A program made the position numbers and the translations under genes. 60,000 nt of DNA from Callorhinchus milii (Eukaryota). The stretch covers positions 108,502,001 through 108,562,000 of the forward strand of contig NW_024704742.1 of NCBI RefSeq assembly GCF_018977255.1, given 5' to 3'. Each line of letters opens with the position of its first letter. The first letter of the stretch is position 1. Positions 942 to 58,965 of this stretch are shown piece after piece. The notes beneath the pieces are model-generated. The model was not told where the DNA came from and did no database searches. It saw only the letters and a program-made list of their open reading frames with translations.

Positions 942-1098
942 CTTCAGATTTGTTGCAACATCAGGGATATTCCTTTTCTCAACCAATTTGTAAAATACCT
1001 CCAGATAAGCCAGACCCTGTAACACTGGCATAGTTTTGTTCTCATGTCTCAGGTAACGGGTCAGGTCAAGAGCTCGATCAAGTGATAACTTTCCTGCA
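942..1098 (-). CDS. erap2: copy A exon 13
   Basis: [19 protein letters not shown]; 157 nt. Confidence 0.92.
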
Positions 1099-4000
1099 CT
1101 AAAGAAAGCAAAAATAACACACAAATCAAGCTTTTCCACCTTCCCCCAATTCACTTTTATTTTATTTCCCCCCTATCTTTGTACCATCTTATCCAATGAA
1201 CCAGTCGCTGTTTGAAAAAAGGGATAGGTGAGCGATACCCACCCAAAATGATACCAATACTAGTGAGCATCTCCACTGCTATGTGCAGATCTCCTAAGAT
1301 AACCTAGCAACTGTGAGCAGATGTGAAAACATGTCTCTTTGACCAATTATCTTTCCCCTCTCCCCACACCCTTTGGCTCCCACCTGCATCTTGGGTGCCC
1401 ATCCAGCACTGTTAAGGGTTTTGAGACATCCTCCTAACAAAAATGTAGACTATATAGTAATTGTAATGTACCATCCTGAGTTACAGAGGTATTTAAGGTG
1501 CTATTGGCTAGGATAAACATTTGAAAAGGAATAATATCAAACCTATAAGAAAACAGCAAAGAATTGGAATAAAGAATTAATAGCTCTCAGTAGAATTGGA
1601 TTAAAGAAACTCAATGATCTCCCAGGTAGTCACTTCTATGAATCTAACACTTTGATTGGGAATGTATATTCACAGAATAAGGTGATATTGACTATCAGGT
1701 CAATAATGCTATTTATCTTGGCAATTCACAATACCTGACGAGTTGGAAAGCATTATGAATGAGGTGTGTTCGGTCCTTCATGCTCAGGAGGGTGTGATCC
1801 TGATCCAGTAGATTAACCAGTGCATCCCATCCACTGTGCTCATAGTGTACAATGTAATAGCCATTCATGTCCACGTTAAACTTCACCCAGTCAGCTTCTT
1901 TGTCCAGTTTAATAGTATCTGATTAACACAAGATCAGTGGGTTTAGTGACGTTCACCAACAAATGAAAACCTAAGAGTTTGGCTTCATCGGTTAGATTGG
2001 ATTCTGCATTACACTCACACTGCACCTGAATTCTGTTGTAAACATTAACAACAACAATTTGCATTTATGTAGCACCCTTCATATCAGATAATGTCTCAGA
2101 ATGCTGTACAGTAGCCAGATGGACACCAAGCAAGGGAGAAAGAGGAGGGGTGAGGTGCTCAAGGACGCAGTTAAGAGGTAGGTTTTCAAGTGAGATTATA
2201 AAATAGGTAAAGAAGGTGGTGGAGCAGAGAGATTGAGACAGGGAGTTCCAGAGATTAGGAACGTTGTGGCTGAAGGCATGTACAGCCACTCATGGTGGCA
2301 TGGAGAGATCAGGAGACTTGCAGACATTGTGCTATGAAGGATATCAAATTGCTACAAAGGCATTTGAAATAAATAGAGGGAAGAAGACTGTGTTTTAAAT
2401 AATTTCACATTGACACACATTTCATTAAATCTTGTACACTATGTTTAGGTTTGTACTATTTTAGCCATGAAAGTGTATTTCATTTTTATGTCACAAGAGA
2501 TGCCAAATATTTAAAACTACCTTAATCCATTTTAATAATTATGGGTACAATTATCTACAGGGAAAAATATGCTATATGATGTGCTAATTATCACAAGGCC
2601 AGAAATGTAATAATTTTGTGCTCTTAGCGACTGGTTCAGACCTGAACATCCCCTTATTTCTGAAAGAAAAATGGATTCTCCGACCAAGTTTCTGGTTAGA
2701 ATTCAAAGTGCTGCCATTGTCTTAGATAGCAAGCATTGCTGAAACCTCTATTCTTGGCTGAATGTGGCCTTTTAACTTTTAATTACAACATAGTATATGG
2801 AGACTGACCCAGGGTTTGTCACCTCCCACGGGCTGTCAAGAAGCAAGCCCATGAACATTTACATGAGTCTAGGTAAGTCTGTGTTTGATGGATAGTGTTT
2901 TCAGCATTTTTCTTGAATATTTCTTGATTTCATCGAATCATAGAATTATACATCACAGAAGGAGGCCATTCGGCCCATCGTGCCTGTGCCCGCTCTTTGA
3001 AAGAGTTGTCCAAATTAATCCCACTTCCCCGCGCTCTCCCCATAGCCTTGCAAATTTGTCCTCCCTAAATATCTATCCACTTCTCTCTTGAAAGTTGTCA
3101 TTGAATCTGCTTCCACCACGCGTTCAGGCAATGCATTCCAGATCGAAACAACTCGCTATGTGAAAAAATTTGTCCTCATCTTCTCCCTGGTTCTTTTGAC
3201 AACTATCTTAAATCTGTGTCCTCTGGTTACCAACCCACCCGCCAGTGAAACCAGTTTCTCCCTGTTCACTCTGTCAAATCCCTTCATAATTTTGAACATC
3301 TCTATTAAATCTTCCCTTAAACTTCTCTGCTCCAAGGAGAACAATCCTTGCTTCTCTTGTCTTTCCACATAACTGAAGTCCCTCATTCCCTGATTTGGTT
3401 TTCAGCAGATATCTGCCTAATATTGATTTATTAATATTTATATTATGTTGTCCCAGCTGAATGAGCAAACAGATGACGGTGGACTAGAATGGTGAATCTT
3501 GGATGGGGACAAACAGACAGACGTCTTTGGTCTTTTTCCCTCTCTCATGGAAAAGCACTCCAAGGTTCTTTTGTCACATCAAGGCTCGATTACAGAAATT
3601 CCCTCCTCATCGGCCTTCCCAACTCTTCCCTTCACAAGCTGCAGATCATCCAAAACCATACAGCTCATGTACTCTAACGCACCAGGCTCCGTGACCCCAT
3701 CACTCCCACCCTCGCCCGACTCCACTGGTTCCCCATCCCCCAGAGGATCGAGTTCAAGATCCTTGTCCTCACCTTTAAGGCCATCCATGGCCTTGCCCCC
3801 TCCTACCTCTCTGACCTGCTGACTCCCTACCAACCTGCCCACTCCCTCCATTCAGCGGGCTCTGGCCTGCTCCATGTCTCCCACCCGACCATGCCCTTGC
3901 CCCCTCCTACCTCTCTGTCCCCACACTCTGTAACTTTATTCCATGGTCCCTTCACCTCGCTTCCTCCCTTGCATCCTTCAAGGCCGGTCTCAAGACCCTT

Positions 4001-7000
4001 CTCTTCGATCGTGCCTTTGGTCGCCCTCCCACCTCTCTGCCTTCCCTCACCCCTACACCACCCCTCCCCCACGCTCGGGCCCCGACACCTGACTGTTCAG
4101 CTTGGGACGTCCTCCCGAAGTGAAAGGCGCTTTATAAATGTAATTTTGTTGTTGTTCTCTGATAACACAGCCAAACCAAGATACCGTGCTGGCAATGGCA
4201 GGACTTGACACATTGAATCACTTCTTTTGTTCTTCTTATCACTTCTTAATCACAGTCTTAACAATCATCTCTGCATCACACCTGGTGCTGCCATGTGTAT
4301 ACTCATCAATGTAATGTGTATGAGATCTCTCACCTGATTTGGTTTTCAGCAGATATCTGCCAATTCTGTCCGAGTTACTCGTGATGTAAGTTAGCGGGAT
4401 GTGCCACAGATAGCTGCAAAAGATTCAGTTAAAAATATGAATGTGGCAAAAGATTGTAGTAACAATATTTTTGATACTCCAGGTGCAGCAGATGGTGTTA
4501 TAATTATATATAAGCAAAACTCCACCAAAACCAACAAAGGAAAATAATCACAAGTGAGGAATAACTACCCAGACTGCAGTGATTCCCACACAGGGTCCTC
4601 TGGAAGGACACTCTTCAGGAAACGCTCCTGTCGTAGCCGGATTAAACTCCCGCTGTGTTCAACAATGATCACTGGCAGCCCTTTCTGAAGTGTCCAAGTA
4701 TTCATAACCTCCTTGATGTCCAGATGTTCCTCTGTATAAAGATACTGAGGAAAAGAAAGGCACAGTTTGCAGTTTTAATACTAAGCGCTTTCATACAAAT
4801 GTATTTTATTCTTTTGAAATCTGTGTTTAAAGGAAGTAAGTCATTCTGTGAATGATCCACCCAGAGTGGAGATCACAAGGGAGCTTCAGATGTAAAAGCT
4901 TTTTGGCCCTTTTGATCTCATTCCACAAAACTGCAGTCCTTCCATTCCAACTTCTTCTGTTTCTTAATTGATGACAATAAGTGTTCACTTCCCCATTTGA
5001 TGGATTATGAGCTCTCCTCTGCTCAGCCACCCAGTGCTGTGTGTTCGATGAGGTTCAGCTGTTGACAGGCAACTTCCTTGTCTTGCTACAAGCATGCCTT
5101 TGTTTGTTAATAATAATAATCCTTGCATTTGATATAGTGCTTTTCAAGTCTTCTCGACGTCTCGAAGGACTTCACAGAATAGACTGTAAAGTGAATCGAG
5201 TGTATATTTGTGGGCGAAACGCGGCAGCCAATTGCGCACAGCAGTGTCCCATAAACAGTCGTGGATTGAAGTGACCAATTTATTATTGGTTTTTTTCTTG
5301 AGTGATTATTATCAGGCATGTGGAGTAAGGAAACTTGCCCAACGTGTCACCCTACTGGGAATCGAATCCAGGTCTCGCGCTTGTGAGGCCAGTGCTTTAA
5401 CCACTGAGCTACAGGACTCCATGTTAATTACATGATTGCCATGCAGAAGGCTACAATAGGGCTTGACCTAACTTTCTGGATGTTGAAAGTCCAATGGAGT
5501 CAGCTATCTTTGATATTCTGGGTAATGACATCTCTCAGAATTTAAGAGGGAGGGAGATGAATATTTGATAGTCAGGTGTATAAAGGGATAACATGAACAA
5601 GCAGTAAAATGTTGCAGATCAACCATGGTCTACTACTATTCCTACGTTCTTAGAATCGGTAAAGTAGTGGCTAATGCAACCTTTTGAATCCATAGTATGT
5701 GTTAATGAATAAAAGAATGAACCAAAACTTACAGCGTTTTTAGCCGCTTGTGAAGTGCTGTAGCAGAATCCACCTGAAGTGAAGTTTCCTTCTGTGCACG
5801 TCTGTTGGGAAGTAACAATTTAATGGTTTAACACATGCTGAAACCATAGATAATCTCAGTACGTCTTTCTGTTTCCAAACCAAAAGAACTGAGTGACGAC
5901 AGCAAAGTTCCACCTTAATATGAGGCTCTGGGACAACGGAAATGTCAGGTCAAGATGTCTTGACAATTGGTCAAGAACAAGTAATGTAGGATGTATGGGT
6001 TGATAAATATTCAATAGCATTCCTCAAGTTTCGCTTTGGGGATTCAGAGAGAAACTCTGCTGAGTACATTATAGGATTTGGATAAAGTCTGTGGTAGAAT
6101 GCATTCTGTTTGGCCTTTGAGAGAAGTAGCTTTGGTTGTCTGAATAGATTTTATTTGTCCATCGCTGTCAATGTCACTTCTTGCTTGGCTTTCGCCAACT
6201 CTTGGCTCTTGGCAATTTGTATCAAATGTTCCCAGGTGCAGTCCTCCAGGGAGAGAGTGCATATTCCATTCCACACACAGGGAAAAGGATAAGTGTGTAA
6301 ATGACATAGATACAGTATGTGGAACTCGAAATCTGGTTTGGATACTCCTTAACATGTTGATGGACTTTCCCATGTGTCAGACACCTGGCTGACCAAAACA
6401 AATGGCATCAACATACAATAATGTGAACTGATTGAATATTTTACATTTACTTCTTCACTCTATGGTGCTTTTCAAATGCAAAATCATATTTTTTTACAGA
6501 AATGTAAAGCCTTACATTGGCCATGCTGTTCCACAGGTCCTCGTTCTTGGCATTCCCATAGCTGTATTTCCGTAGGTAAGAAACTAAGCCACTCTGGAAA
6601 ACCTCCTCTGTTAGAAAATTCCTCAACATGTGCAGAATGCAAGCACCCTACATTCAACAGTAGCAAAAGGTCAGTTACACCATGCATAATCTGGAATTAA
6701 TGAATTGTCCCCATTACTAAATAAAAAAAACAGACAGCAAAAATGAGTGACAGACGAAACATCAATGCTTATTCAGACTCTCTTTGAAAGGCCAAACATT
6801 GAGGTACAGTATTTTTACTGGAGCCATAGGTAAATATTGGGCACATACTACCAACTAGAGCAACAGGGTTAGAAGTTAAGCATGACCTATCCTCACATGA
6901 GCATTTGGGATGTCCTCCTGATGTGAATACTGCAAACATAAATGTAAATTTGTATTACATTGTATAAACACAAAACTATAATAGGGGAGACTGACACATT

Positions 7001-10000
7001 ATTAGCCTGTTAGAGAACATATGAATTCTCTAATTACTTTAAACAGAGAGTAATTAAAGACTGGAATGAGTTACCAGGAAGGGTGGTTGAGGCCAGGACA
7101 CTAGACCTGTTTTAGAAACAGTTTAATGCTGTTATAGAAAGTTGGTAGGATAGGTATTCTAGAAGGGTGCGATCCAATGGGCCAAACGCCATTCAAACTT
7201 CTGTTGCAATTACATTAGCCCAGGACTAGCTTTATAGTCTAGTTTTTGTTAAATTCCCACTTACTTTCTCATAAGATACCGAGTCAAACATTTCCTGGAT
7301 CTGAGTTGGACTTTCTGCTGCTGTGGATATAGCACGTGATGAATTCATGGAGTCGCTTCCCATTGCTCCAAAACATGTGTTCAGAAGATAGTCATCCTGG
7401 GCAGATCAAACGTGAAAGAATGCGTTAAATTGAATCAAAGATCCTGTAGTTATTGAGTTACTGGTATTGAGAAGAATTTACTCACAACTTGTAGCTCTGG
7501 ATAGGTGGCACCAACAGAGACAAACTCCATATACCGGGCAAAGCCTTCGTTAAGCCAGAGGTCATTCCACCACTCCATTGTCACCAGGTTACCAAACCAC
7601 TGGAGGAAACAAACATTCATTAATACTCTCAAAGGTTTGCTTTCAATTAGCAAGGATTGCGAAGGGCCCTGCGAGCAGCAATTTAGCACTTCCTTACCAG
7701 ATGAATTAAAATTTAAGATTTACAATCAAAAGGATAAATTCCATCCCAGAGATTCCTTCCTCTCACCCTCATCTCATTGAAGGTCTAGCTCAAGATATAC
7801 CTCTTTGATCACACTTTTGGTCATCTTTCCCCTCCTCACCCTCCTTGGGTCCCACCCCCAGCTTGACTGCCCAGCCAGGAGTGTTCAGTGCTCTCAGACA
7901 TCCTCCCAATATGAAAGGCACTGAATAAACGGCACTTGTAAGTAAAACAAACATGGATCCCATTTGAAATGTGACAAGCCTGTGGGACACACCATTGCCC
8001 AGAAGCTGGGTGGGGAGGGAATGTTCGGTCACAAACCTATCATTAACAACAACAACAAGATTACATTTGTATAGAGTCTTTCACGTCGGGAGGACATCCC
8101 AAGGCGTTGGACAGAGTACAGCATTTCAGACCCGAGCTGGGGTCGGGGGGGGGGAGAAGGGAGGGGAGGGGAATGGCCGATGGCATGGTCAAAGAGGAGG
8201 GTCTTGAGGCGGGACTTGAAGGAGGCTAAGGAGGGGACGAGGCGGAGTGACTGGGGGATGGAATTCCAGAGGCTGGGGGCAGAGTGGCTGAAGGTTCTTC
8301 CGCCAATGGTGGGGCGGGTGGGTTGAGGGACGTGGAGCAGGCCAGAGCCGGCTGAGCAGAGGGAACGGGCAGGTTGATAGGGGTTAGGCGGTCACAGATG
8401 TAGGGTGGGGCGAGGCCATGGAGGGCTTTGTATGTGAGGACCAGGATCTTGAACTGGATCCTCTGAAGGATAGGGAGCCAATTGAGTCGTACGAGAGTGG
8501 GGGAGATGGGGTCACGGAGTTTGGTTTGGGAGAGGACACGGGCTGCAGAGTTCTGGATTATCTGCAGCCTGTGGAGGGAGGAGTTGGGAAGGCTGACAAG
8601 CAGGGCATTTGCATAGTCGAGCCTGGAGGTGATGAAGGCATGAGCAAGAGTTTCAGTGGCCTGAGGGGTGAGGTAGTGGCGGAGTCGGGCGATATTACGG
8701 AGGTGAGGGAAGGCAGAGCTGGTCATGGCTTGAATGTGGGGGAGAAAAGACAGTTGAGGGTTGAACAAGACACCGAGGTTCCTGACTGGCTGGTGAGTTG
8801 TAGTGTGCAACCGTGGAGGTTGATGCTGCCAGAGCCTGAGGTGCTGAGGCGCTGGTGGGAGCCAATCAGGAGGGCCTCAGTCTTGTTCACATTCAACTGT
8901 AGGAAATTTGCCCTCAACCAGGACTTGATGTCCGACAGGACAGCAGTGGTCCTGGAGTTGGGTGTCATCCGCATACATGTGGAAGTTGATCCCATGTCTG
9001 TGGATGATGTCACCAAGGGGGAGCAAATAGATATTAAAGAGGAGAGGGCCAAGGACAGCCCTGGGGGATATCAGACGTGACAGTGCGGGGGCTGGAGGAG
9101 AAACCGTTAGAGGCAACAAAGTGGAGACGGTGAGAGAGATAGGATTCGATCTAGGCAAGGGCAGCTCTGTGAAGATTGAGTAAAGCAGAGAGGCGGTGTA
9201 TGAGGATGGAGTGGTCAACGATGTCAAAGGTGGCAGAGAGGTCGAGGAGGACAAGGAGGCAGAGGGAGCCCTGATCACAGATGTTCAGAATGTCATCAGT
9301 GACTTTGACCAGGGCTGTTTCCGATCTGTGGGCAGCCAGAAGCCGGATTGGAGGGGTTCAAAGAAGGAATGGCGAGAAAGAAAGAAGCTGAGCTGGGACA
9401 CGACGACTTGTGCCAGGACCTTGGAGAGGAATGGGAGGTTAGAGATGGGGCGGTAGCTGGAGAGGAGGGATGGGTCCAGGGAAGGTTTTTTCAAGATGGG
9501 GGTGATGACAGCTGTTTTTAGGGGGGTGGGAACTGAACCGGTGGACAAGGAGAGGGGCCAGAAGGTGGAGCTGGGAGATGAGGAGAGAGGTGGGGATGGG
9601 TTCGAGGGAGCAGGTGGTGGGTTTGAGTTTGCGGACAGCCGTGGTGAGAGAGGAGGGAGTGATAGGGTCGAAGGAGTATGGGTGGGGGTGGGTCATAAGG
9701 GAGAGGTGATGTGGGGATGGCTGTGGACGGGGCTGAGGTGGCTGAACGTATTCCCTTGATTTTAGATTCGAGGAAGTCCAGCATCTCCTTAAAGTTGGAG
9801 TTTGAGGAGAGGATGGGTGAGGTATGGGAAGGTGGACGGAGGAGACGGTTAGTGGTGGAAAAGAGAAGCCAGGGATTGTCCTTTGTCTCCAAGATAACCA
9901 AGAAGTAGTAGGAGGATTTGACGGAGGCAAGAGCACAGCTGTAGGTCTTGGTGTGGTGAAGCCAAATGTGCCAATGGACCATGAGTTTGGATTTGGTCCA

Positions 10001-13000
10001 GGCACGTTCGGCAGCTCGCACTTGTGCCTTGAGGGAACAGAGATGGCTGGTGTACCAGGGGGATTAAAGACAGGTTTTTAAGGACAGACACATTCTGTAC
10101 GATGTGTTAACCATCCTGGCATTAACTAAGCAACAGACTGTGTTTAGGAATACTGCAATTTTCACATCTTTGTGTTCAGTACAGCTCTTACATCTTTATT
10201 ATGGTCACATTACAGACCATACGAGCACACACCTCACCATAATAGGTCGAAGTTGTATATCTATCGCTATATCCATTTATAATATATTATATATATTTTA
10301 GGGTTACAAAGGCCGTAAGTACAAGGATTCAGATTATTTATTGTTTTTTTATTCAGATACACACCTCAACAAGCTTAACATAGAGCATTCTTAGCTCCAA
10401 CAGATTTTAAGCCTTCAATAGGGCTAGTGCACATTCCTTCATATTCATTACACCCATCTTCTCACCACATTTATCAATTCCTTCTCTCCAGAAGCACATT
10501 TACTTGCCTGTAGAACAAGTACAACTCTTTGTTTCAATGGGCTTACTTTGTAACTTGTTCTATAAATTTATATCCCTCGATGTACAAAATAGTTCCTGAA
10601 TTCTCCATTTATTCCTGGTGAATTTAGAATACAGCATTCCAAAATGGTAAACTGTATGAAAGTTGTTGCATAAACGCAAGTTGTTGTTGTCATGATAGAA
10701 AGCCAACTTTCAATGTAAGAGATGGAAATACCTGATGAGCCAGTTCATGCCCAATCACCATAGTAATCCATAGTTTATTCGATGCTGAGGAGGTCACTGA
10801 ATCGTAGAGTAGAGATGTCTCCCTATAAGTGATCAAACCCCAGTTCTCCATGGCTCCTGACTCAAAATCGGGAATCGCTACGAGATCTAAAAGCACAATA
10901 TTTCTTCTGTTGTTATATCAACAGCAAGGTCGATTTTCACAATATCAACAATAATAACAACAGATTACATTTCTATAGCACCTTTCAGTCAGGAGGATGT
11001 CCGAAGGTACTGGACAGTCAGGGAACCCCACTCGAGCTGGTGGTTTGGATCAGGAGGGCGGGGAGGGGAGGGGTAGGAGGGTGACCAAAAGCACGTTCGA
11101 AGAGGAGGGTCTTGAGACGGCTCTTGAATGAGGCAAGGGATGGGGCAAGGCAGAGTGACTGTAGAATGGAGGGCTTGTGGGATAGAGTTCCAGATAATGG
11201 GGGCAGAAAGGCTGAGGCCCGCCCGCTAATGGTGGAGTGGGCAAGGCGGGGTACGTGAAGCAGGCCGGAGCCTGCTGAGCAGAGGGAGCGAACAGGTTGG
11301 TAGGGGTATATCATTGATATACAGTATATGTAATAAGATGAAATTAAATTGTTGCCTTTTTTAAAGAACATTATGACTGTTTGATATCCCTTTCCCAGTA
11401 GCTGTTGATATTGCCATACCTTGCTTTGGGAGTGGGAAGTAGATATTGAAATAATGTTCATAAAACTCCAGTAGTTTCACTGCTGCTTCCAAAGCATAGT
11501 GAGTTTGGCTCCACTTGTCTGGAACAGCGTATATGGACACCTATTGAATGGGGTATAGATGTGTCAAAGTCCTTCAAGTCAATGAGCAGGAAAATGTACA
11601 TTATATTCCAGAATAGGCAATTGCTTAGAAATAAATATAATAATCTTTGCATTTTGATATAGCGCTTTTCATGTCTTCTAGATGTCTCAAAGCGCTTCAC
11701 GGAATATACTGTAAAGTGAATTGACTGTATATATTTGTGAGTGAAACGTGGTAGCCAATTGCACACAGCAGGTTTTGGTGCTCTGCGCAATTTATTATGT
11801 TCAATGGATACTTGTTCATGACGGTAAACTAGTACCAGGGAATCTTAAAAGCAAATGCAACAGAGTCTGCACAGTACTATCACTTAACTTTGGAAGTTCT
11901 AAATTTAAATTAAACTTTGAAAAATGCCATACACGTAGTTCTGTGTTTTTTACTACAAAACTACAACATAGTTTTGGTCAAAGGACATTTTCCTCCGAGC
12001 TCCAGATGCCATTTCTCCAGGCCCAGATTTAATCAGATCCAAAATGTTTAAGGCAGACTTCCCCATACACACAAAAAAACAAATAACTCTTAAAACAATC
12101 AGCTTCAAAATTAAAGACTGGGTTTAAGAATCTTCCCACATTCTGGACACTCTGAATTAATCCAGTAATAGATAACATATTATATTACAATAGATGTCAT
12201 GGGATTTTTAACTACATAGATTGTTATAGACTGTAAGCACGGAAACAGGCACTTTGTCGAATCAATATTATATATAATCTATAATATTTTTCACCCACTA
12301 AATATACAGTCAATTGACTTCACAGTATATTCTGCGATGCGCTTTGACGTGATAGGGTGCTGCTACAAATGCAAGATTATTATTATTATATATATGCACA
12401 CACAAACTCATGATAACCTTCCTTTACATCTATGCCTCTGGTCACCTCCACCCAGCTCGGAGTCGTGCTCCGCCACTGTCAAGCACTCTGGGACTCTACG
12501 CTGCATGAGAGGTGCTATATAAAGTTATTGTTGTAGTAATCTATACCCAGGTAGAATTGTAGCTCACGTAGGTATTGAATATGAGGTACCTGGTGTTCAG
12601 GATACTGCCCAACCCCTCACAAGGAGGAAACATTATTTTGCGTCATATTTTCAATTCTTTAAACCTGTGGAAAGATGCTTTAAATCATATATCACTGAAA
12701 TATATGTCCTTCGGTTGAGATATTAACACCAAGTCTGCCTGCTCTAGTGAATCCAATAGATATACACACGAAGGAGAAGGGACTAGAAGGGATGAGTTGG
12801 AGTACGGGTGGGTGAAGACTCGGGTGGAGTATAAACATCAGTTGGACTGATTGTGCCAAGTGACCAGGTTCTGTACTGTACAATCAGTGACAATTTATGC
12901 AGTTTAAGATCGCATGACATTCGTTCAGAGAGCAGAAAGTTACTGTATTCTGGTCCCCTGGCTAATATTATTTGTTGATACTTGTTCTTTATGACATGTT

Positions 13001-46142: not shown

Positions 46143-49100
46143 CTGAAACAGATGTATGCAGGTAAGGGTTTGGTTTACAGGACATACTTTACAAATATAG
46201 CCTGAATATAATTGAACAATGTTCAATTATATACAACATTGCGGTCATATGTTCAGGTCATATGTTCAGGATGTCTATCTCTGTACTGCCAGTTACTCAG
46301 GCTAGAAAAGAGGAAATACAGGTTAAATGGGTGGCTTTATGTTTGCCCGTATCTCTATGAGGTTCTCTCTGAGTTGTTTTCTCTCAAAATTGATTATTAC
46401 CCAGTGTCAGCATTTATCGTGTTTTTGGTCAGCCGGGTGCCTGAACATGTGAAAAACCATCATCATGTTTAATAGTATCTAAACCTGAGAGGGAGCCCAC
46501 ATATGTATACCAACTACATCTGTAAATGTCCATGTCTGGAATGGAATGTTAAGTCTCTCCCAGAGGGACCCACCCACCTTGCATACCTGATTCCAGATTG
46601 TACTAGACACAAGTCACAAGTTTGCGAAAGCCATGGCTTGGGAACCTATAGTGTACACCGGGGAACTACTGGAGTTTAACAAGCTTAAATTGCATAGTTT
46701 GCCACCAAGAGCATTGTCTGGCAAGCTTCTCCAGCTTGGAAAACTCTACATATTGCAGGGTTAACAGGAGCCAAGTGGGAAGAATACCGGCCTCCCTCAG
46801 CAATCACTTCAAGTTCACGTTTAGCACAGGTTGTACGCAGAGTGCACCTTCCTTTACCTTTAAGCCTCACTTGAGAGTTTTGTACTGAATGTTCTAATAT
46901 TGTCACCAACCATATCTTTGTGCTCTCTCATTCATTGTGTTTATACAATAACAAAAGCCACTAACCTCCTCCAATTCTTCCTGTGAGATGTCGTTCCAAC
47001 CATAAGCCATCTGATAGTGAAGGAGCCAAGCTCAAATCTGTGAAGAATATGGACATTGTTAAACACCCTTCACACTGGCACTTTGCAAAAGAAAAATAAT
47101 GTTCTTGGACAGTTTAGCTTAATTTAGTATTTAGTGCTGTTATGAGTTGCCCGAGGTTCCTGAATGTCAGCTGCTCTTTTTATTAGTATTATATTAATCA
47201 TAGAGATCTATTATGGGAAACAATGAAGGATTCTGTCCAACGCACAAGATCATAAAAAGCCACTCATCTCAACAGATCATATCACAAGAGTATTTCAGTC
47301 TAGTTTCACTATGTGGAGATGAACACAGGTAGGTCACCCAATGCTCCTTCACTGAGCTGTAACTGCTCCCATTGCAATTGTTCTCCACATGACATTGAAA
47401 CATTCAGTGTTGGTGTGTATTGCAATGCAATACAGAGTCCTGTAGCTCAGTGGTTAGAGCACTTGCCTTGCCAGTGAGAGACCTGGGTTTGATTCCCGGC
47501 AGGGTGAAACCTTGGGCAAGTTTCCTTACTCCACACGCCTAATAATAATCACTCAAGAAAAAAAATTGGTCACTTCAATCCATGACTGCTTTGTGGGACA
47601 CTGCTGTTCGCAATTGCCTGCCACGTTTTACCCACAAATATACAGTCAGTTTATTTTACAGTATATTCTGTGAAGCTCTTTGAGACGTCTAGAAGACGTG
47701 AAAAGCGCTATATCAAATGCAAGAATTATTTTTTTTTACTTCGTAAATGTCACTACCTTGTGCTGCTCGGATACTACTGAAGGACACAAGGTCTGAATGA
47801 TTAAAAAGGTACTGACTTCTCAATCAGTTTGTTCCAATTCGTCTTCACAAAATTCCAGGCAAGGAGATGTCCGACTGGGTTTCTGCTCACTGCAGCAACG
47901 ACATGGGCTAGATCCTGCAACTTGATGACATTCCCTTCCATACCAATCTCCAACAACCTGGGGATATCAGAACAGAGAAGAACTGAGCATCAAGCACAAA
48001 ATAAGCCTACGCCAGCCACAAGATGTGCTTCACACACAAGTTGAGTGCAGAAGGCCATGTGACTGACACACTCCTTTGGTGTGATAGCTGCCCTGTTGCT
48101 CTGCTATTCTTTTTTTCTGAAGGAGAATATATTACCTCTTATTTGCAGAGTAACTGGTTTGGTTCAGAAATGTAGTTATACCTATTTTACTTGATCTAAA
48201 GAAATCTATATATTTTTTTAAAAGAAGTGTTTTACAAGCTTGGAACAAGAGATAAATCCATGAAAAGTAAAACAAGCTGTTAGTTGCCTTGTAATCACAA
48301 CCCAACACAATGAATGAAGCTTAACGGGCATGAATAGCCTTTTGGCTTCTCAATGTTTAATGTAAAATAAACTCCTTACTGTGCCAGTTTCTCTGGATCC
48401 CTGGTGGCTGCCAAAGCGTTAACAATCTTAATCTTTTCAGCCCCTGACATGGACTGGATGTACTTCTTCAGGAGGTATTCCCATCCATCAGCCCTCTGGG
48501 CTCCCACAGAATACACGATCTCGAGAACATCTGTTGGCAAACTGTAATACCAAACAGTCAGCTGAATAAATCGGGTATCTTGTATGTGTACATATATATT
48601 TGTTTGTATGTATCTACGCACGTATGTATGTGAGGGTGAGAAGATGGATGAGTGAGTGAATGAATAAGTGAGCGAGTGAGGATGTGAAGAGGCATGTTTG
48701 TGTTCATTAATAAGATATGGAATGGTAATGTAGTATCAGTGAAAAGCTGCTGCTGCTGCCCACTCCTCACATCTGGTTCAGAGCAGCACTAGTGACAGGC
48801 TATTCCCAGGCTTCACTTCCCAACTCTCAGCTTTTGACAAGTGTTGACAGAAGGATTGTCAAAGGAGGCATGAGAAAATAACTTACAAAGAAACCTAAAT
48901 TGGCCTCCACCTATAGCAATCTTCACATTTGACGTGGACATTATACAAGATGAACAAGATGATTAGCTTTCTAAACAAACAAGAAGTTGACCACCCAATG
49001 AACTAACCTGATGGTGCCGTCGGAATTCTTCCACTTATTGAATAAATCTAAAGCCTTTTGGAGGCAGGGAGGGTACTGCAGGTCACAGGCCATCTCCAGG

Positions 49101-52100
49101 AGGTTGGTGCGCAGCAGACGCTCTGACAGGGAGCCATCGTCACTCCAGGACTGCTTGTCAATCAGGTGTTTGAAAAACTCCAGGATATATCTCTGCAATA
49201 TGATGGACATCACACAAAGAGTCAGCCTGGGATTGTCTTACTTTCAATTTGAATACAACCTTATCTGAAGGAAAAATGTGAAGATTTCTTATATTAAAGA
49301 TTCACACCTGAAAACAGCCCATTGTAGCCCCTTTGACTGACGTACTGATTAATTTTATGTATCCGCTTGGCTCAGAAGGTAGCATTCTCGCCTCTGGACA
49401 GGGCTGCTGAGTTTGCCCACAAAATACACAGTCACTACACTTTACAGTATGTCCTGTGAAGCACTTTGAGATTTCATCCAAAATGTGAAAGGCAAATGTA
49501 ATAAATGTTGTTGTTACTACTGTGATTTGTGTTTTGTCTTACCCAAAAACGTTTAAGGAACGATTCTTTAATGTGATTTCTAATAGCCAATCCAGCATTT
49601 CCCTCTTCAAAAATATTAGTCCTAGGATCGATTACCAGAATGCTCCTCAGCCCCAACAGGTGTGACTGGCAGCAGGAAATCCAATTCCTGCCAGCAGCAA
49701 TATCACAGCAATGTCCAGCACCACACAACCAGGTAGAAGATTACAACCTCAGTCAACAAATGCAAGGTCGAGGTAAAGTGGAGATTGTTACCTTCAGATT
49801 TGTTGCAACATCAGGGATATTCCTTTTCTCAACCAATTTGTAAAATACCTCCAGATAAGCCAGACCCTGTAACACTGGCATAGTTTTGTTCTCGTGTCTC
49901 AGGTAACGGGTCAGGTCAAGAGCTCGATCAAGTGATAACTTTCCTGTACTAAAGACAGCAAAAAATGACTTAGATGATGTTCCAGTACGATTACAAATCA
50001 ATTTTTTCCATCTTCCCCCACTTCACTTTTATTTTAATCCCCCATCACCTATCTTTTTATTATCTTATACCACTAACCCATCTCTGTTTGAGATAAAGAA
50101 TAGTGAGCTATACACACAACAACAAGATTTCATTTATAGAGCGCCTTTCACGTCGGAAGGACGTCCCAAGGCGCTGGACAGTTGGGTCAGCAGGGGGGAA
50201 ATGGTCAGGGTGAGGGGAGGGAAGGGAGGGAGGGAGCGAGAAGGTGTAGAGAGTCGAGAGGGGAGCTGAAGGCACGGTCGAAGAGAAAGGTCTTGAGACC
50301 GGCCTTGAAGCAGGAAAGGGAGGAAGCAAGGCGAAGGCACTGGGGGATGGAGTTCCAGAGCCTGAGAGGCTGAAGGCCCGGCCACCGATGGTAGGGCGGT
50401 TGGGGCGGGGGATGTGGAGCAGACCGGAGCCAGAGGAATCGGAGGGTACGGGCAGGTAAGTAGGGGGATAGTAGGTCGGAGAGGTAGGAGGGAGCAAGGC
50501 TGTGAATGGCCTTGTAGGTGAGGATGAGGATCTTGAATTCGATCCTCTGGGGGATGGGGAGCCAGTGGAGGCGAGCGAGGGTGGGAGTGATGTGGTCCCG
50601 AAGCCTGGTGCGGGACAGTACACGAGCTGCAGAGTTCTGAATGACCTGCAGCTTGTGGAGGGAGGTGCCGGGAAGGCCGGCGAGGAGAGAGTTCCCATAG
50701 TCCAGCCTTGAGGTGATAAAGGCGTGGACCAGAGTTTCAGCAGCGTGAGGGGTGAGGTAGTGCCGTAGTCTGGCGATGTTTCGGAGGTGATGGAAGGCAG
50801 TGCCAGTTGTGGCGCAAATGTGGGGAAGAAAGGACAGCTCAGGGTCGAACAGAACGCCGAGGTTCCTGACTGGCTTTGAGAGGTGGAGAGTGCAGCCTTG
50901 GATGCTGATGGTGTCAGCGCCTGAGGTGCGGAGGCGCTGACGTGAGCCAATCAGGAGGGCCTCAGTTTTGCGCACGTTGAGCTGAAGAAAGTTGTCTCTC
51001 GTCCAGGACTCGTGTCAGACAGGCTGTCAGGACATCGGTGGTCGTGGAGTTGAGGGCAGAGGAGGAAAGGTAGAGTTGGGTGTCATCCGCATACATGTGG
51101 AAGTTAACCCCATGTCTGCGGATGATGTCACCAGGGGGAGCATATAGAGGGTGAAGAGGAGGGGACCGAGGACAGAGCCCTGAGGGAAACCACACGAGAC
51201 AGTGCGGGGGCTGGAGAAAAAGCTGTTTGTGGAAACAAAATGAAGACGGTGGGAGAGGTACGACCTAAACCACTCAAGGACAGGGCCTTGAAGGTTGAGG
51301 TGGGAGGACAAGCGGTGGAGGAGGATAGCGTGGTCAACCGTATCGAATGCGGCTGATAGGTCGAGGAGGACGAGGAGGCAGAGGGAGCCCTGGTTGCAGA
51401 TGGTCAAGATGTCATTGGTGACCTTGACCAGGGCGGTTTCTGTGCTATGGGCAGCACGGAAATCCGACTGAAGGGGTTCGAATAATGCATGGGTGGAGAG
51501 GAAAGAGCGCAGCTGGGAGGCGACAACTCTTTCAAGGACCTTGGACAGGAAGGGGAGGTTGGATATGGGCCGGTAGCTTGATAGCTGCGACGCATCAAGG
51601 AAGGGTTTTTTCAAAGTGGGAGTGATGGTGGCAGTTTTTAGGGGAATGGGAACAGAGCCAGAGGAGAGGGACAGGTTGATGATGTCTGTGAGAAGTGGGC
51701 CAAGGAGGTGGAGCTGAGAGATAAGGAGTGGAGTGGGGATGGGGTCAAGGGAGCAGGTGGTGGGTTTCAGGGACAGGATGAGTTTGGTGACAGAGGGTGG
51801 GAAAACAGGTTCAAAGGTGTGTAGGGGAGGATGGGTAGGAGTCGGAGTGTGGGAAGGAAGGGGTGGGGAGTGGGTGGAAGGTGGAGGGGCAGTGACCGCG
51901 GAGCGGATTCCCTTGATTTTGGATTCAAGGAAATCCAGCATCTCCTCGCAGTGAAGGTTGAAATTACACCTGAAATTACATCAATGCTAGTGAGCATCTC
52001 CACTGCTATGTACCACACTTTTGCTTATCTTTCCCTCCCCACTCCCCTTGGCTCCCACCTGCAGTGTTAATTGTTTTAAGACGTCCTCCCAACACCAATT

Positions 52101-55100
52101 GTCTTGTAACTGTATTGTACAATTCTGAGTTTCAGAAGTACTTAAGGTGTATTGGCTAGGGTATTAGGATAAACATTTGAAAAGGAACAACATAAAAACC
52201 TATAAGAAAACAGCAAATAACTGGAATTAAGAATCAATAGGTCTCAGTCGAATTGGATTAAAGTAACTCAATGACCTCCCAGGTAGTCACTTCTATGAAT
52301 CTAACACTTTGATTGGGAATGTATATTCACAGAATAAGGTGATATTGACTATCAGGTCAATAATACTATGTATCTGTGGCAATTCACAATACCTGACGAG
52401 TTGGAAAGCATTATGAATGAGGTGTGTTCGGTCCTTCATGCTCAGGAGGGTGTGATCCTGATCCAGTAGATTAACCAGTGCATCCCATCCACTGTGCTCA
52501 TAGTGTACAATGTAATAGCCATTCATGTCCACGTTAAACTTCACCCAGTCAGCTTCTTTGTCCAGTTTAATAGTATCTGATTAACACAAGATCAGTCAGT
52601 TTAGTGATGTTCACCAACAAATGAAAACCTAAGAGTTTAGCTTCATCGGTTAGATCGGATTCTGAATTACACTCACACTGCACCTGAATTCTGTTATAAA
52701 TATTATCAACAACAACAATTTGCATTTATGTAGCACCCTTCATATCAAACAATGTCGTGGAATGCTGTACAGTAGCCAGATGGACACCAAGCAAAGGAGA
52801 AAGAGGAGGGGTGAGGTGCTCATGGATGCAGTTAAGAGGTAGGTTTCAGGTGATTAAAATAACCTGAGTTCAATTCCAGGCAGGGCGAAACCTTGGGCAA
52901 GTTTCCTTACTCCACACAGAGCCTAATAATAATTCCTCCAAAACCAAAAATGATAATAAAATTGGTCATTTTCAATCCACGACTGTTTGTGGGACACTGC
53001 TGTGCGCAATTGGCTGCCGCGTTCACCCACAAATATACAGTCAATTCACTTTACAGTATGTTCTGTGAAGCGCTTTGGGACGTCCTCCCAACGTGAAAAG
53101 CGCTATATCAAATGCAAGGATTATTATTATATAGGTAAAGAAGGGGGTGTGACAAAGAGGCTGAGGCAGGGAGTTCTAGAGATTAGGAACGTTGTGGCTG
53201 AAGGCATGTACAGCCACTCATGGTGGCATGGAGAGATCAGGGGATTTGCAGACATTGTGTTATGAAGGATATCACATTGATACAAAGGCACTTGAAATAA
53301 ATAGAGGGAAGAAGACTAAGATTTAAATAATTTCATATTGATACACATTTCTATGAAATGCTTTGCGACGTCTTGAACACGTGATAAGGCTCTATAGCAA
53401 ATAGAAGAATTATTATTACTTCATTAAATCTCATTCAAGAAGTGGCCTACGAACACTGACATGAGTCAAGGTAAGTCCATGTTCCGTCGGTAGTGTGTTT
53501 TCTGGTTTTTGTGATTGAATATTCCTTGATTTATGTTATCAATTTATTTTGTTGGCCGATCATGAAGGTTGCCCACCACTGTCTTCGCTACACTGAACTC
53601 CACCTGCTACAGCTTTGCCCACTCACTTAATTTGTCTAAGTCTAACATGAGTCTAGGTAAGTCCGTGCTCCATTGGTAGTGTTTTTTCAGTTTTTTTTTA
53701 TTGATTTTTTGCTAATTGAGCAAACAAATGTCCATCTTTAACCCTAAGAGTAGCCTTGGATGGGGTCTGTCTTTGGTCTTTTTCCCTCTTTCATGGACCA
53801 TCACCAAAGCTCTCCTCAATGGTACTCTGACAGGACAACTAAACTAAGATACTATAGAGAACTGAGATACCATAGAGCACAGATGGCCTAAGATACCATA
53901 GAGCACAGATGACCTAAGATACTATAGAGCACAGATGAACTAAGATACTATGTAGCATAGATGACCTAAGATACTATAGAGCACAGATGAACTAAGATAC
54001 TATAGAGCACAGATGAACTAAGATACTATAGAGCACAGATGAACTAAGATACTATGTAGCATAGATGAACTAAGATACTATAGAGCACAGCTAATCTAAA
54101 CTGGCGATGGCAGCACGTGACACATTGAATCTCTAATTCTGCAGTCCTTGACAACCATCTCTGCATCACACCTGGTGCCATGTGTATACTCCTCAATGTA
54201 GTGTGTACGAGATCTCTCACCTGATTTTGTTTTCAGCAGATATCTGCCAATTCTGTCTGAGCTACTCGTGATGTAAGTTAGCGGGATGTGCCACAGATAG
54301 CTGCAAAAGATGAGGTAAAAATATTTTTGATTCTCCAGGTGTTGCAGAAGGTGTTATAATGATCTATAAGCAAAACTCCGCCAAAAACAACACAGGAAAA
54401 CAATCACAAGTGACCAATAACTACCCAGACTGCAGTGACTCCCACACAGGGTCCTCTGGAAGGACACCCTTCAGGAAACGCTCCTGTCGTAGCCGGATTA
54501 AACTCCCGCTGTGTTCAACAATGATCACTGGCAGCCCCTTCTGAAGTGTCCAAGTATTCATAACCTCCTTGATGTCCAGATGTTCCTCTGTATAAAGATA
54601 CTGAGGAAAATAAAGGCACAGATTGCAGTTTTAATACTAAGCGCTTTCATACAAATGTATTTTATTCATTTGAAAAACATTGCAGATCAGTCATGGTCTA
54701 CTACTGTTTGTAACTTCTTCTGATCTTAGAATCAGTAAAGTGGTGGCTAATGCAACCTTTTGAATCCACAGTATGTGTTAATGAATAAAAGAATGAACCA
54801 AAACTTACAGCGTTTTTAGCCGCTTGTGAAGTGCTGTAGCAGAATCCACCTGAAGTGAAGTTTCCTTCTGTGCAAGTCTATTGGGAAGTAAGAATTTAAT
54901 GGTTTAACACATGCTGAAACCATAGATCTTCTCAGTACGTCTTTGTTTCCAAACCAAAAGAACTGAGTGAAGACAGCAAAGTTCCACCTTAATATGAGGC
55001 TCTGGGACAATGGAAATGTCAGGTCAAGATGTCTTGACAATTGTTCAAGGATGAATAATGTAGGATGTATGGGTTGATCAATATTCAATGCAGTTCTCAA

Positions 55101-58100
55101 GTTTCGCTTTGGGGATTCAGAGGGAACCTCTGCTGAGTCTACTCTCAGTACATTATAGGATTTGGATAAAGTCTGTGGTAGAATGCATTCTGTTTGGTCT
55201 TTGAGAGAAGTAACCTTGGTTGTCTGAATAGATTTTACTTGTCCATACTTATATAAAAAAAATCCATCGACTACTGTACTAAGTGGTTTGAAAAACTAAA
55301 TTGAATCTTCTTTTAGCAACTGGTGAATTCCTCCAGGGAGAGAGTACACATTCATGGAAAATGTCCATGTGTAAGTGACATATATGCAGTATGTGGAATT
55401 CTTAGTGAGACACCTGACTGACCAAAACAAATGGTGTCAATAGACAATAATGGTGCTTTTCAAATGCAAAATCATTTTTGTTACAGAAAGGTAAAGCCTT
55501 ACATTGGCCATGCTGTTCCACAGGTCCTCGTTCTTGGCATTCCCATAGCTGTATTTCCGCAGGTAAGAAACTAAGCCACTCTGGAAAACCTCCTCTGTTA
55601 GAAAATTCCTCAGCATGTGCAGAATGCAAGCGCCCTACATTCAACAGTAGCAAAAGGTCAGTTACAACATGCAAAATCTGGAATTAATTAATTGTCCCCA
55701 TTACCAAAAAAACAAAACAGACAGCAAAAATGGTGACAGATGAAGCATCAATGCTTATTCAAACTCTCTTTGAAAGGCCAAACATTGAGGTGCAGTATTT
55801 GTACTGTAGCCATATGTAAGTATTGGGCACATACTACCAATTAGAGCAATAGGGTTAGAGGGTAATCATTACCTCTCCTCACGTAAGAGCTTGGGATATC
55901 CTCCCAATGTGAAAGGCACTCATATACTAAATTTGTGTTGTGCTGTATAAACACAATTCTATATTAGACATTATTAGCCTACTAGAGAATATATCAATTT
56001 ATCAATTGGCTGCCGCGTTGCGCCCACAAAATATACAGTTAATTCACTTTACAGTATATTCTGTGAAGCGCTATGAGACATCTCGAAGACGTGATAAGGC
56101 ACTATACCAAATGCAAAGATTATTATTATTGCTTTATAAAAAGACTGATTAAAGACTGAAATGGGTCGCCAGGAAGGGTGGTTGAGGCCAGGACACCAGA
56201 CCTGTTTTAGCTTAATGCTGTTATAGGAAATTGGTAGGATGGGTTTTCTTGAAGGATGAGATCCAATAGGCTAAAGGGCCATGGAAACCTCAGCTGTGAT
56301 TAGACTTTACGTGTAGTTTCTGTTAAATTCCCACTTACTTTCTCATAAGACACGGTGTCAAACATTTCCTTGATCTGAGTTGGACTTTCTGCTACTGTAG
56401 ATATAGCACGTGATGAATTCATGGAGTCTCTTCCCATTGCTCCAAAACATGTGTTCAAAAGATAATCATCCTGGGCAGATCAAACGTGAAAGAATACGTT
56501 AAATTGAGTCAAAGATCTTGTAGTTATTGAGTTACTGGTATTGAGAAGAAATTACTCACCACTTGTAGCTCTGGGTAGGTGGCACCAACAGAGACAAACT
56601 CCATGTACCGGGCAAAGCCTTCATTTAGCCAGATGTCATTCCACCACTCCATTGTCACCAGGTTACCAAACCACTGGAGGAAACAAACAATCATTAAGAC
56701 ACTGAAAAGTTTTCTTTAAATCAGCGAGGATTGCGAAGGGTCTTTAATTAAACTAAACTTTGAAAATTACCACATATGTTGTAAGAAATTGAAGCAGACA
56801 TAAAACCACCAGACACTGATCTAACAACTGTTTGCTATTGTTGATTATTATAACGCTGTGATTAATTACAATTGTAGTCAACTTTAACCCCACTCTGGAA
56901 ATTCATCTTCTTTTGAGTTGCTGCTCCCAGGGTTAGGATCAACTCATTTACTTTCTCACTTGTTCTATAAATTTATATATAAATTTATATCTCTTGATGT
57001 ATAAAATAGTTCCTGAATTCCCTATTTATTCCCGGAATTTAGAATACAGCATTCCAGGATGGTATCCTGCATGAACGTTGTTGTATAAATGCAAGTTGTT
57101 GTTGTTAATGGTAGAAGGCCAGCTTTCAATGTAAGAGATGGAAATACCTGATGAGCCAGTTCATGCCCAATCACCATAGTAATCCACAGTTTATCCGATG
57201 CTGAGGAGGTCACTGAATCATAGAGTAGAGCTGTCTCCCTATAAGTGATCAAACCCCAGTTCTCCATGGCTCCTGACTGGAAATCAGGAATCGCCACGAG
57301 GTCTAAAAGCACAATATTTCTTCTTTTATTTATTATATCATAAGGTCAATTTTAATAATGTCATTGATATACAGTATATTGCAACAAGATGGAATTAAAT
57401 TGTTGACCATTTTAAAGAACATTATGACTGTATTTTATCCCTTTCCCATTAATAATAATCCTTGCATTTGATATAGTGCCTTGTCACGTCTTCTAGATGT
57501 CTCAAAGCACTTCACAATACAGTAAAATTAATTCACTGTATGTTTTGTGGGCGAAACACGGCAGACAATAGTGCACAGCAGTGTCCCACAAACAGTCAAG
57601 GATTAAGGAACCCAATTATTATTATTTATTTATCTTTTGAAGGGATTATTACCTCTGGATAAGCGATCTGCCAATTGACTAACAACCGGGTTCCTACTTA
57701 CTGCTTGGTAAACAGAGGCGTGTGGAGTAAGGAAACTTGCCCAACAATTATATTGATATTGACATACCTTGCTTTGGGAGTGGAAAGTAGATATTGAAAT
57801 AATTTTCATAAAACTCCAGTAGTTTTACCGCTGCTTCCAAAGCATAGTGAGTTTGGCTCCACTTGTCTGGAACAGCATATATGGACACCTATTAAATGGG
57901 TTAAAGACGCGTCAAAGTCCTTCAGTTCAATGAGCAGGAAAGAGTATATTATTTCCCAGAACAGGCAATTGCTTACATTGTAGTTTCACCTCCCCAAAAA
58001 AACTCTTAAAACAACCAGCTTCAAAATTAAAGACTGGTTTCTCACATTCTGGCTCCTCTGAAATAGTGCATTAGTAGAGTAAATGTTTCCCCAGGTGGAA

Positions 58101-58965
58101 TTTTAGCCCATATAAATATTGAGTATTAGATAACTGGGTGTACAGGATGCTGGATTCTCCCTCCCCCCAACTGATACCCCTAGTTAAAGATCCCAAGACA
58201 TTCGTTCAGAGAAGAGCAGGAAGTTACTGTATTCCAGAGCAGGAACCAGTACAAGGCACAGAGAGACAACTTTGGTGCAAAGCTCACCTTTATTCCTGTT
58301 GAAGTTACAGCACTAACAGATTTGAAGTCACAGACAATAAATGCCACCAGGTATGTGCTCATCCTCACACTCACAGCAAAATGGTCTTCAAAAAGCCCCT
58401 CCCCTATTGGTAAAGATTTAACCTGGAAGATATAAAAAAAATCACTTATGAAGCAGAACATTTTTTTCAAATGAAACATTTATTTTCTCAGTTTTTAAAA
58501 AAAATGTTTTTTGTGAGTTTAAGACAAAACTTATTCCTATCTTGTGTTAAATGGTGGTAATTTAAAGTGAGGTGGGAATGAGGGTTGGGGTCTGATAATA
58601 AGGCTTTAGTAACTGTCACAGACAACCAGAGTTATTTAATGCTTCTTTCATTCATTCATAAAAGCCATCATAGAGACAGAGTATGGAAAGCCAGAGTTCT
58701 CCTCTTTTTACCCATTTAACAATAACATGAAGTGGAAAGTTTGTCTGTAGTTGCAGGTCAGGCTAAACAATCCTACAATCATAAACAGTGAGGGTGTGAC
58801 TGTCAAACAGAATGAAGATCACTTACCATGGGCATGTTGGACAGTGCAATGTATTGGCTGCCTCTCCTGATCTTGACTGAGAAGTTGGCTTTGAAAGATG
58901 GCTCATCAAAGCAAGGAAAGGCCATGCGTGCTGATGTAGGTTCAAAATGGGTAGAAGCAAGCAGT
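45990..58965 (-). CDS. erap2: ERAP2-like ER aminopeptidase, copy C (coding exons 2-18; start right of window; frameshift in exon 17, so truncated protein or young pseudogene)
   Basis: 17 GT-AG exons with the same sizes as copy B except exon 17 (72 vs 82 nt). The shifted frame stops at TGA 46141-46139. Confidence 0.85.
46966..47037 (-). CDS. erap2: copy C exon 17, 10-nt deletion (frameshift)
   Basis: [18 protein letters not shown] then RKNWR; 72 nt vs 82 nt in B. Confidence 0.88.
47817..47957 (-). CDS. erap2: copy C exon 16
   Basis: [19 protein letters not shown]; 141 nt. Confidence 0.9.
48380..48541 (-). CDS. erap2: copy C exon 15
   Basis: [15 protein letters not shown]; 162 nt. Confidence 0.9.
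49008..49192 (-). CDS. erap2: copy C exon 14
   Basis: [14 protein letters not shown]; 185 nt. Confidence 0.9.
49792..49948 (-). CDS. erap2: copy C exon 13
   Basis: [12 protein letters not shown]; 157 nt. Confidence 0.9.
50117..51950 (-). mobile_element. young L2 LINE, about 1.8 kb, 5'-truncated, copy C only
   Basis: 304-aa and 256-aa RT ORF pieces separated by frameshifts; hairpin and (TTG)n tail; empty sites in A and B. Confidence 0.92.
52393..52576 (-). CDS. erap2: copy C exon 12
   Basis: [12 protein letters not shown]; 184 nt. Confidence 0.9.
52862..53130 (+). mobile_element. 5'-truncated tRNA-derived SINE, copy C only
   Basis: Starts at the B box; empty sites at A ~2200 and B ~30170. 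Confidence 0.85.
53845..54090. repeat. 26-bp minisatellite, about 9 units
   Basis: Same unit and flanks as 30815-31270. Confidence 0.92.
54221..54300 (-). CDS. erap2: copy C exon 11
   Basis: [12 protein letters not shown]; 80 nt. Confidence 0.9.
54425..54600 (-). CDS. erap2: copy C exon 10
   Basis: TWTLQKGLP; 176 nt. Confidence 0.9.
54809..54877 (-). CDS. erap2: copy C exon 9
   Basis: [13 protein letters not shown]; 69 nt. Confidence 0.88.
55503..55634 (-). CDS. erap2: copy C exon 8
   Basis: [12 protein letters not shown]; 132 nt. Confidence 0.9.
56339..56470 (-). CDS. erap2: copy C exon 7
   Basis: [28 protein letters not shown]; 132 nt. Confidence 0.9.
56560..56673 (-). CDS. erap2: copy C exon 6
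   Basis: [11 protein letters not shown]; 114 nt. Confidence 0.92.
57148..57302 (-). CDS. erap2: copy C exon 5 (GAMEN, HEXXH)
   Basis: [27 protein letters not shown]; 155 nt. Confidence 0.92.
57768..57888 (-). CDS. erap2: copy C exon 4
   Basis: [10 protein letters not shown]; 121 nt. Confidence 0.9.
58288..58422 (-). CDS. erap2: copy C exon 3
   Basis: [13 protein letters not shown]; 135 nt. Confidence 0.9.
58827..58965 (-). CDS. erap2: copy C exon 2
   Basis: [13 protein letters not shown]; 139 nt. Confidence 0.9.

Follow-up and report, generated by a model that had tools for sequence, protein, structure and literature searches.

In mammals, peptides for major histocompatibility complex (MHC) class I are trimmed by a complementary pair of enzymes, ERAP1 and ERAP2, and the origin of this division is unsettled. 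A 60-kb stretch of the genome of the elephant shark, the chimaera Callorhinchus milii (contig NW_024704742.1, positions 108,502,001 to 108,562,000; hereafter the window), carries three ERAP2 genes in tandem, raising the question of whether they encode one enzyme several times over or enzymes of different specificity. We lean slightly towards the second answer, in which copies A and B would be endoplasmic reticulum (ER) aminopeptidases with differing pocket chemistry, ancestral in A and shifted towards basic N-termini in B, that jointly broaden trimming, copy C having been broken recently.

Self-comparison of the window revealed three collinear repeats, and tblastn combined with splice-site fitting gave three ERAP2 genes with GT-AG introns, all on the minus strand:

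942..16258, minus strand: ERAP2 copy A, coding exons 1-13, ATG at 16258; exons 14-18 lie past the left window edge.
21942..41218, minus strand: ERAP2 copy B, complete, 18 coding exons, 943 aa, ATG at 41218, stop at 21942-21944.
45990..58965, minus strand: ERAP2 copy C, exons 2-18; exon 1 lies past the right window edge.

These models reproduce exactly the two distances reported in an earlier note that proposed three minus-strand copies from the sequence (24,960 bp from ATG A to ATG B and 24,048 bp from stop B to stop C). Exon lengths match in all copies except at exon 17, which has 82 nt in B and 72 nt in C; the identical exon architecture claimed in that note therefore holds elsewhere but fails at exon 17 of copy C, which is 10 bases short and frameshifted. 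Individual exons differ between copies by 0-12 changes; 39 of 943 positions vary among the copies, and A and B differ at 29 of 943 residues (97% identity). Copies A and B have intact frames and canonical splice sites, with no internal stop in the complete reading frame of B, and the first coding exon matches C. milii proteins at 100% identity. Copy A is identical to RefSeq XP_042190149 ("ERAP2-like", a 943-aa protein) over 703 aa, copy B to XP_042190131 ("ERAP2") over 943 aa, and the diagnostic residues of copy C recur in the C. milii models P0125 and P0127-P0133 of UniRef, with no type C protein among the 13 RefSeq cluster members. The UniRef models, which presumably stem from an earlier assembly, differ from the window by single residues at 369 (A), 767 (B) and 222 (C). 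Because all 16 C. milii protein records compared sort into type A, B or C, the array probably consists of exactly three copies.

The best match among solved structures was human ERAP2 (1288 bits, versus 1184 for ERAP1 and 875 for IRAP), and human ERAP2 numbering, used below for pocket residues, equals the copy B position plus 20 in this alignment. Copy B contains the Pfam domains Peptidase_M1_N (PF17900), Peptidase_M1 (PF01433) and ERAP1_C (PF11838); the GAMEN motif, the HEXXH(X)18E zinc motif and the catalytic Tyr are kept in the translations of A, B and C, and a check of the copy B residues equivalent to 334-337, 370, 371, 393 and 455 found the catalytic set kept. The N-terminus has a hydrophobic stretch from residue 8 and lacks the long cytosolic tail of the LNPEP type, a tail of this kind being a defining feature of IRAP. 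FastTree, run on 207 proteins after removal of fused models, C. milii fragments and sequences below 760 aa, separated 147 ERAP2 rows from 60 ERAP1 rows, and IQ-TREE, run on 30 of 42 chosen rows, united A, B and C in one clade (Shimodaira-Hasegawa-like approximate likelihood ratio test, SH-aLRT, 100) that is sister to shark and ray ERAP2 (SH-aLRT 99). Sequence identity of C. milii ERAP2 is 79% with the ERAP2 of sharks and 59% with their ERAP1, and at 51 columns diagnostic for ERAP1 versus ERAP2, all copies scored have the ERAP2 state at 36 and the ERAP1 state at one. The idea that copy B had turned ERAP1-like was rejected, Lys420 being its sole unique ERAP1 match among these columns. The trees place all three genes within chondrichthyan ERAP2, in agreement with the earlier note's view of a lineage-specific expansion of ERAP2-type genes in a probable cartilaginous fish; of the phylogeny it suggested against ERAP1, ERAP2 and LNPEP, the grouping with ERAP2 rather than ERAP1 is answered, and LNPEP is in neither tree.

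Copy B differs from A and C at residues equivalent to substrate-pocket positions of human ERAP2 and to two sites positively selected in mammals (416 and 420):

36902..36904, minus strand: copy B codon 178, Asp (human Asp198, S1 pocket); His in A (14736-14738) and C (58947-58949).
34508..34510, minus strand: copy B codon 343, Arg (human Trp363, S1' pocket); Trp in A and C.
33620..33634, minus strand: copy B codons 396-400, with Phe396 and Lys400 (human Tyr416 and Val420); Tyr and Thr in A and C.
22981..22983, minus strand: copy B codon 872, Val (human Tyr892, S2' gate); Phe in A and C.

Papers are cited here by PMC number, from excerpts of their text. In human ERAP2, Asp198 and Glu200 hold the side chain of Arg in S1, the contact of Asp198 being seen in a crystal structure, while Trp363 lines S1' and Tyr892 gates S2' (PMC11284793), and the Q181D change in ERAP1, at the position matching 198, alters specificity (PMC6131210). 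Asp198, the residue of mammalian-type ERAP2, is present in B, whereas A and C have His. Position 198 is His in 21 of 24 elasmobranch ERAP2s, Gln in three and Asp in none, and His is the usual state outside the Asp198 lineage described below (128 of 147 ERAP2 rows); Trp363 is found in 24/24 elasmobranch and 118/120 other ERAP2s. Since residues of B predicted to line the substrate pockets have changed, A and B likely trim different peptides. The His-to-Asp change would place an acidic group in the S1 pocket of B, favouring N-terminal Arg or Lys as in human ERAP2, whereas A would retain the ancestral His pocket; Arg363 and Val892 would reshape S1' and S2' of B, and the two enzymes would trim peptides for MHC class I with different specificity. 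Among 18 ERAP2 active-site residues taken from PMC11284793, five vary among the copies (P = 5e-4). Positively selected sites of mammalian ERAP2 have been placed at 416, 420 and 857 and tied to stability, not catalysis (PMC3967941), and two of these three (416 and 420) are changed in B (P = 0.005). B also has Met453, A has Glu332, Ser348 and Asn360, and C has Lys447, Thr452 and Arg427, the elasmobranch consensus.

Gln198, the ERAP1 residue, occurs in three stingray and devil-ray ERAP2s (P0011, P0014 and P0016), two of which have long branches and further pocket changes. The 69-base exon 9 (5733-5801 in A, 31986-32054 in B, 54809-54877 in C) encodes a two-cysteine loop as in human ERAP2, with a Gly-to-Val change at residue 486 in B.

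Pairwise ratios of nonsynonymous to synonymous substitution rates (dN/dS) were 0.20 for A-B, 0.12 for A-C and 0.37 for B-C, showing that all three copies were constrained. Copy-specific changes in exons 2-13, nonsynonymous to synonymous, numbered 10:6 in B, 8:22 in A and 6:10 in C, a higher nonsynonymous share in B than in A and C combined (14:32; Fisher p = 0.036).

In copy C, the end of the reading frame is disrupted:

46966..47037, minus strand: exon 17 of copy C, which lacks 10 bases present in B; the gap falls between 46983 and 46982, where a short direct repeat lies.

Beyond residue 884 the original frame is lost: six foreign residues are added before a stop (46139-46141) at the start of the last exon, costing the last 59 C-terminal residues. 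The same frameshifted tail is carried by UniRef models P0002 and P0003; the only piece seen across exon 17 in reads (record 19 of sequencing run X9) is without the deletion. Judged as a pseudogene, copy C has its frameshift, yet dN/dS between A and C is 0.12, spliced contigs contain exon letters of type C, and the premature stop falls within the last exon; its transcript would be expected to escape nonsense-mediated decay. Purifying selection would have acted on copy C until the late frameshift, which likely left a weakly active or dead enzyme. The expanded set of trimming enzymes envisaged in the earlier note is accordingly three genes, of which only two encode full-length enzymes.

Evidence from reads comes from contigs compared with copy C for four of 24 listed runs (X5, X6, X7 and X9, from two studies, which we guess to be RNA), with 40 of 311 variant rows listed. 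Because contigs of X6, X7 and X9 run from exon to exon, the locus is transcribed and spliced. A-type exon 15 letters occur in X5, X6 and X9, synonymous letters unique to B in X5 (codons 415 and 537) and X9 (codon 537), a C-type exon 7 in X9, and C-type intron 3 contigs in X5 and X6, suggesting that each copy is expressed separately. Upstream of A and B we found a shared candidate element:

17957..17968, minus strand: 12-mer resembling an interferon regulatory factor (IRF)-binding element, about 75 bases upstream of the donor of a candidate non-coding first exon of A.
42648..42659, minus strand: the same IRF-element-like 12-mer, upstream of copy B.

The search used a motif pattern taken to represent the element; it gave two matches against 0.06 expected, both being copies of one ancestral site. 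Human ERAPs are regulated by interferon-gamma (PMC7390905). Matches resembling the gamma-activated sequence and poly(A) signals were too common for interpretation. RefSeq isoform X1 of B uses an upstream mini-exon with an ATG (minus strand, 42249 in B and 17292 in A), whose donor reads GTTG in B and GTGG in A.

The history of the array can be read from its introns and spacers, for which two further features matter:

15660..17386, no strand: 1.7-kb block around coding exon 1 of A, 98.5% identical to 40620-42343 by self-comparison.
16259..21941, no strand: B/A spacer, comprising the 3' flank of B, CA-rich microsatellites, a long interspersed nuclear element (LINE) fragment and the 5' flank of A.

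Introns diverge between copies at 5-16% of aligned columns in most comparisons and differ in length through separate insertions of LINEs and short interspersed nuclear elements (SINEs); introns 8-10 and 17 of B and C diverge by at most 2%. The B/A spacer is homologous to the C/B spacer (41219-45989), and both contain a LINE fragment and CA-rich repeats, suggesting that one original junction was copied by unequal crossing-over. An ERAP2 unit of about 24-25 kb would have undergone tandem duplication after divergence from the shark and ray lineage, with a second round of copying by unequal crossing-over and then patchy gene conversion; the near-identical tracts (the A-B exon 1 block and B-C introns 8-10 and 17) are likely conversion tracts, the A-B block a recent one. 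LINE copies with reverse transcriptase remnants (Pfam RVT_1) lie at 50116-51980, 8049-9789, 18696-19862, 38810-39624 and 42873-43684. Several are 92-96% identical to one another and are found in an intron of one ERAP2 copy only; because each of these insertions sits in a single copy's intron, they postdate the duplications. A 26-bp minisatellite in intron 11 has 17 units in B (30828-31267) and nine in C (53859-54090), with none listed in A.

In the trees, bony vertebrates have two ERAP2 lineages, one mostly His198 (coelacanth, turtles, emu, crocodile and most teleosts) and one mostly Asp198 (mammals, turtles, lungfish, sturgeon, gar, bowfin and eel), with copies about 63-66% identical across the split. 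Both lineages occur in turtles, sturgeon, bowfin, tarpon and coelacanth (rows P0019, P0022, P0023, P0081, P0156, P0158, P0180 and P0360), and the fused coelacanth model P0360 has His and Asp ERAP2s in tandem. Given these lineages and the coelacanth tandem, more than one ERAP2 is common outside mammals and not unique to the elephant shark. Residue 198 flips repeatedly, since the bowfin a-copy has Asp198 and the tarpon b-copy His198. We did not find this two-lineage pattern in the literature consulted. In the turtle Asp-type cluster (P0159), Gopherus flavomarginatus and Natator depressus each have two distant accessions, a hint of more turtle duplicates. Placement of copy B within the bony-vertebrate Asp198 lineage was rejected by the approximately unbiased (AU) test (283 log-likelihood units lower, p = 3e-99), from which Asp198 likely arose anew, and independently, in B; among the copies, only B shows the Asp-lineage state at 2 of 18 diagnostic columns. 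B may resemble that lineage in function without being a member.

Two explanations concern where the copies came from. That they are haplotypes wrongly assembled in tandem, the case named in the earlier note as one that would overturn it, we regard as barely credible: the exons are indeed very alike (0-12 differences each), but there are three sequence types, not two, and the introns, mostly 5-16% apart with different lengths and insertions, indicate that the copies are not haplotypes. The same three types also recur in separate UniRef models with single-residue differences, and run X5 alone contains A-type and B-type exon letters together with C-type intron 3 and 5 contigs. It is also improbable, if less so, that the His/Asp pair dates back to the origin of jawed vertebrates and that B is the old Asp gene, homogenised by conversion except at the selected site. 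The conversion patches are real, B shares its two diagnostic columns with the Asp lineage, and the coelacanth has the pair in tandem; however, one of those columns, 417, is also the elasmobranch consensus, none of the 24 shark and ray ERAP2 sequences has Asp198, residue 198 flips elsewhere (bowfin and tarpon), and the AU test speaks against it, although full conversion would yield the same AU result.

The main competing explanation of what the copies do, which we consider possible but doubtful, is plain dosage or neutral duplication in decay, with A keeping the function, C a pseudogene and B mildly damaged under relaxed selection. The frameshift of C fits it, as do the raised nonsynonymous share of B with dN/dS still below 1, the departure of B from near-invariant residues such as Trp363, and the dispensability of ERAP2 in rodents and many humans (PMC7390905, PMC9234130). 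Yet B has lost no catalytic residue, its frame is complete and its splice sites canonical, its changes sit at pocket positions, and its His-to-Asp change is the one that sets the second bony-vertebrate ERAP2 lineage apart. Several results nonetheless weigh against two enzymes with divergent pockets. We found dN/dS above 1 neither for the whole gene nor in any region tested, exon 7 included (0.21-0.50), so these ratios do not establish positive selection, and the raised rate of B fits relaxed constraint as well as it fits a retuned enzyme. The list of 18 active-site residues is post hoc, the review having first been searched with residues chosen after the differences were seen; in an independent table of S1' residues (PMC7225938, with its entry "Val376" taken as 367), two of 11 vary (P = 0.07), and within domain II alone the pocket enrichment is weaker (3/14, P = 0.04). 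Changes at 416 and 420 are predicted to be destabilising (PMC3967941), and Trp363Arg alters a nearly invariant residue. On the side of expression, the Asp198 site is not among the variant rows listed, the letters unique to B, all synonymous, could be alleles, the read contigs are mosaics of paralogs, and read depth, dominated by SINE and LINE repeats, carries no weight here, so the paralog-specific RNA check proposed in the earlier note succeeded in recovering spliced contigs with A, B and C letters but not in separating the copies. Finally, the MHC role would be carried over to chimaeras by analogy with mammals, and an older blood-pressure role has been argued for the subfamily (PMC7390905). 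A version in which the copies serve mainly peptide-hormone processing in the renin-angiotensin system, instead of antigen trimming, could draw on that proposed ancestral role and on angiotensin III, which starts with Arg, a favoured ERAP2 substrate (PMC9234130); we consider it highly improbable in view of the IRF-element-like motif upstream of A and B and the missing LNPEP-type cytosolic N-terminal tail.

If A and B are indeed two different trimming enzymes, the state of ERAP1 in the elephant shark becomes relevant. When proteins were searched with the ERAP1 of the sevengill shark, the top matches were ten clusters from sharks and rays, counting the query (79-100% identity), and then lungfish and coelacanth (72%). 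No C. milii row was among the best 120 of 7,332 matches, in a search that scored proteins of 522-1663 aa from 8,000 candidates and would miss a fragmentary or unannotated gene. The 31 unnamed rows all best matched skate, sturgeon, amphibian, bird or mammal. As C. milii ERAP2 is 79% identical to that of sharks, an ordinary C. milii ERAP1 should rank near the top. Within the window, tblastn of shark ERAP1 found ERAP2 exons only and no plus-strand relic; because human ERAP1 adjoins ERAP2 in the opposite orientation (PMC6039459), an elephant shark ERAP1 would sit just past the right edge. From these searches, ERAP1 has probably been truly lost. Absence of ERAP1 has been reported for other groups through ortholog tables, and neither the groups so listed nor the survey as excerpted from PMC7390905 includes cartilaginous fish. 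A more speculative proposal, which we put forward tentatively and consider rather unlikely as a whole, is that the elephant shark lost ERAP1 and rebuilt two-enzyme trimming from duplicated ERAP2, re-evolving the His-to-Asp S1 switch independently, with A and B as complementary enzymes.

The earlier note was unsure whether the array had been described; it is partly on record, two of the three copies being annotated in RefSeq, and the pocket substitutions in B are new. We found no description of the ERAP2 triplication, the pocket changes or the missing ERAP1 in the literature, with most subscription journals outside coverage, and a text search of the supplement to the genome paper of the elephant shark (PMC3964593), which would not see figures or scanned tables, gave no ERAP match. 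Were ERAP1 absent and ERAP2 split into His and Asp variants, complementary trimming would have evolved more than once through the same substitution, and A and B would form a natural, 97%-identical enzyme pair with complementary specificity whose determinants could be mapped by simple swaps, as only 29 residues differ. Should B be no more than a decaying copy and ERAP1 exist without annotation, the locus would be an ordinary tandem duplication. The trees further suggest that most fish "ERAP2" (His198) belongs to a lineage other than that of mammalian ERAP2 (Asp198), which bears on borrowing human substrate rules in fish immunology.

Compared with known systems, the elephant shark genes share with human ERAP2 (PDB 3SE6 and 5AB0; an M1 aminopeptidase of the oxytocinase subfamily) the three Pfam domains, GAMEN, HEXXH(18)E, Tyr455, Phe450 and Glu200. 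Asp198 is common to human ERAP2 and copy B, with His198 in A and C; copy B departs from the human enzyme with Arg363, Phe416, Lys420 and Val892, human Arg366 is Met in all three copies, and there is one human gene against three here. Shark and ray ERAP2 (for example Heptranchias XP_067838981), the sister group at 79% identity, has His198 like A and C, and the shark and ray records seen have one ERAP2 and one ERAP1 cluster each, with neighbouring accession numbers, in contrast to three ERAP2 types and no ERAP1 match in the elephant shark. Salmon also has two ERAP2 copies, but these are ohnologs, 93% identical (PMC5824609), that came from whole-genome duplication rather than in tandem, with ERAP1 kept. 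A further parallel is the His/Asp pair found within one genome in two-lineage bony vertebrates, in tandem in the coelacanth; that split is old, whereas the elephant shark pair, 97% identical, appears to be a separate and younger one.

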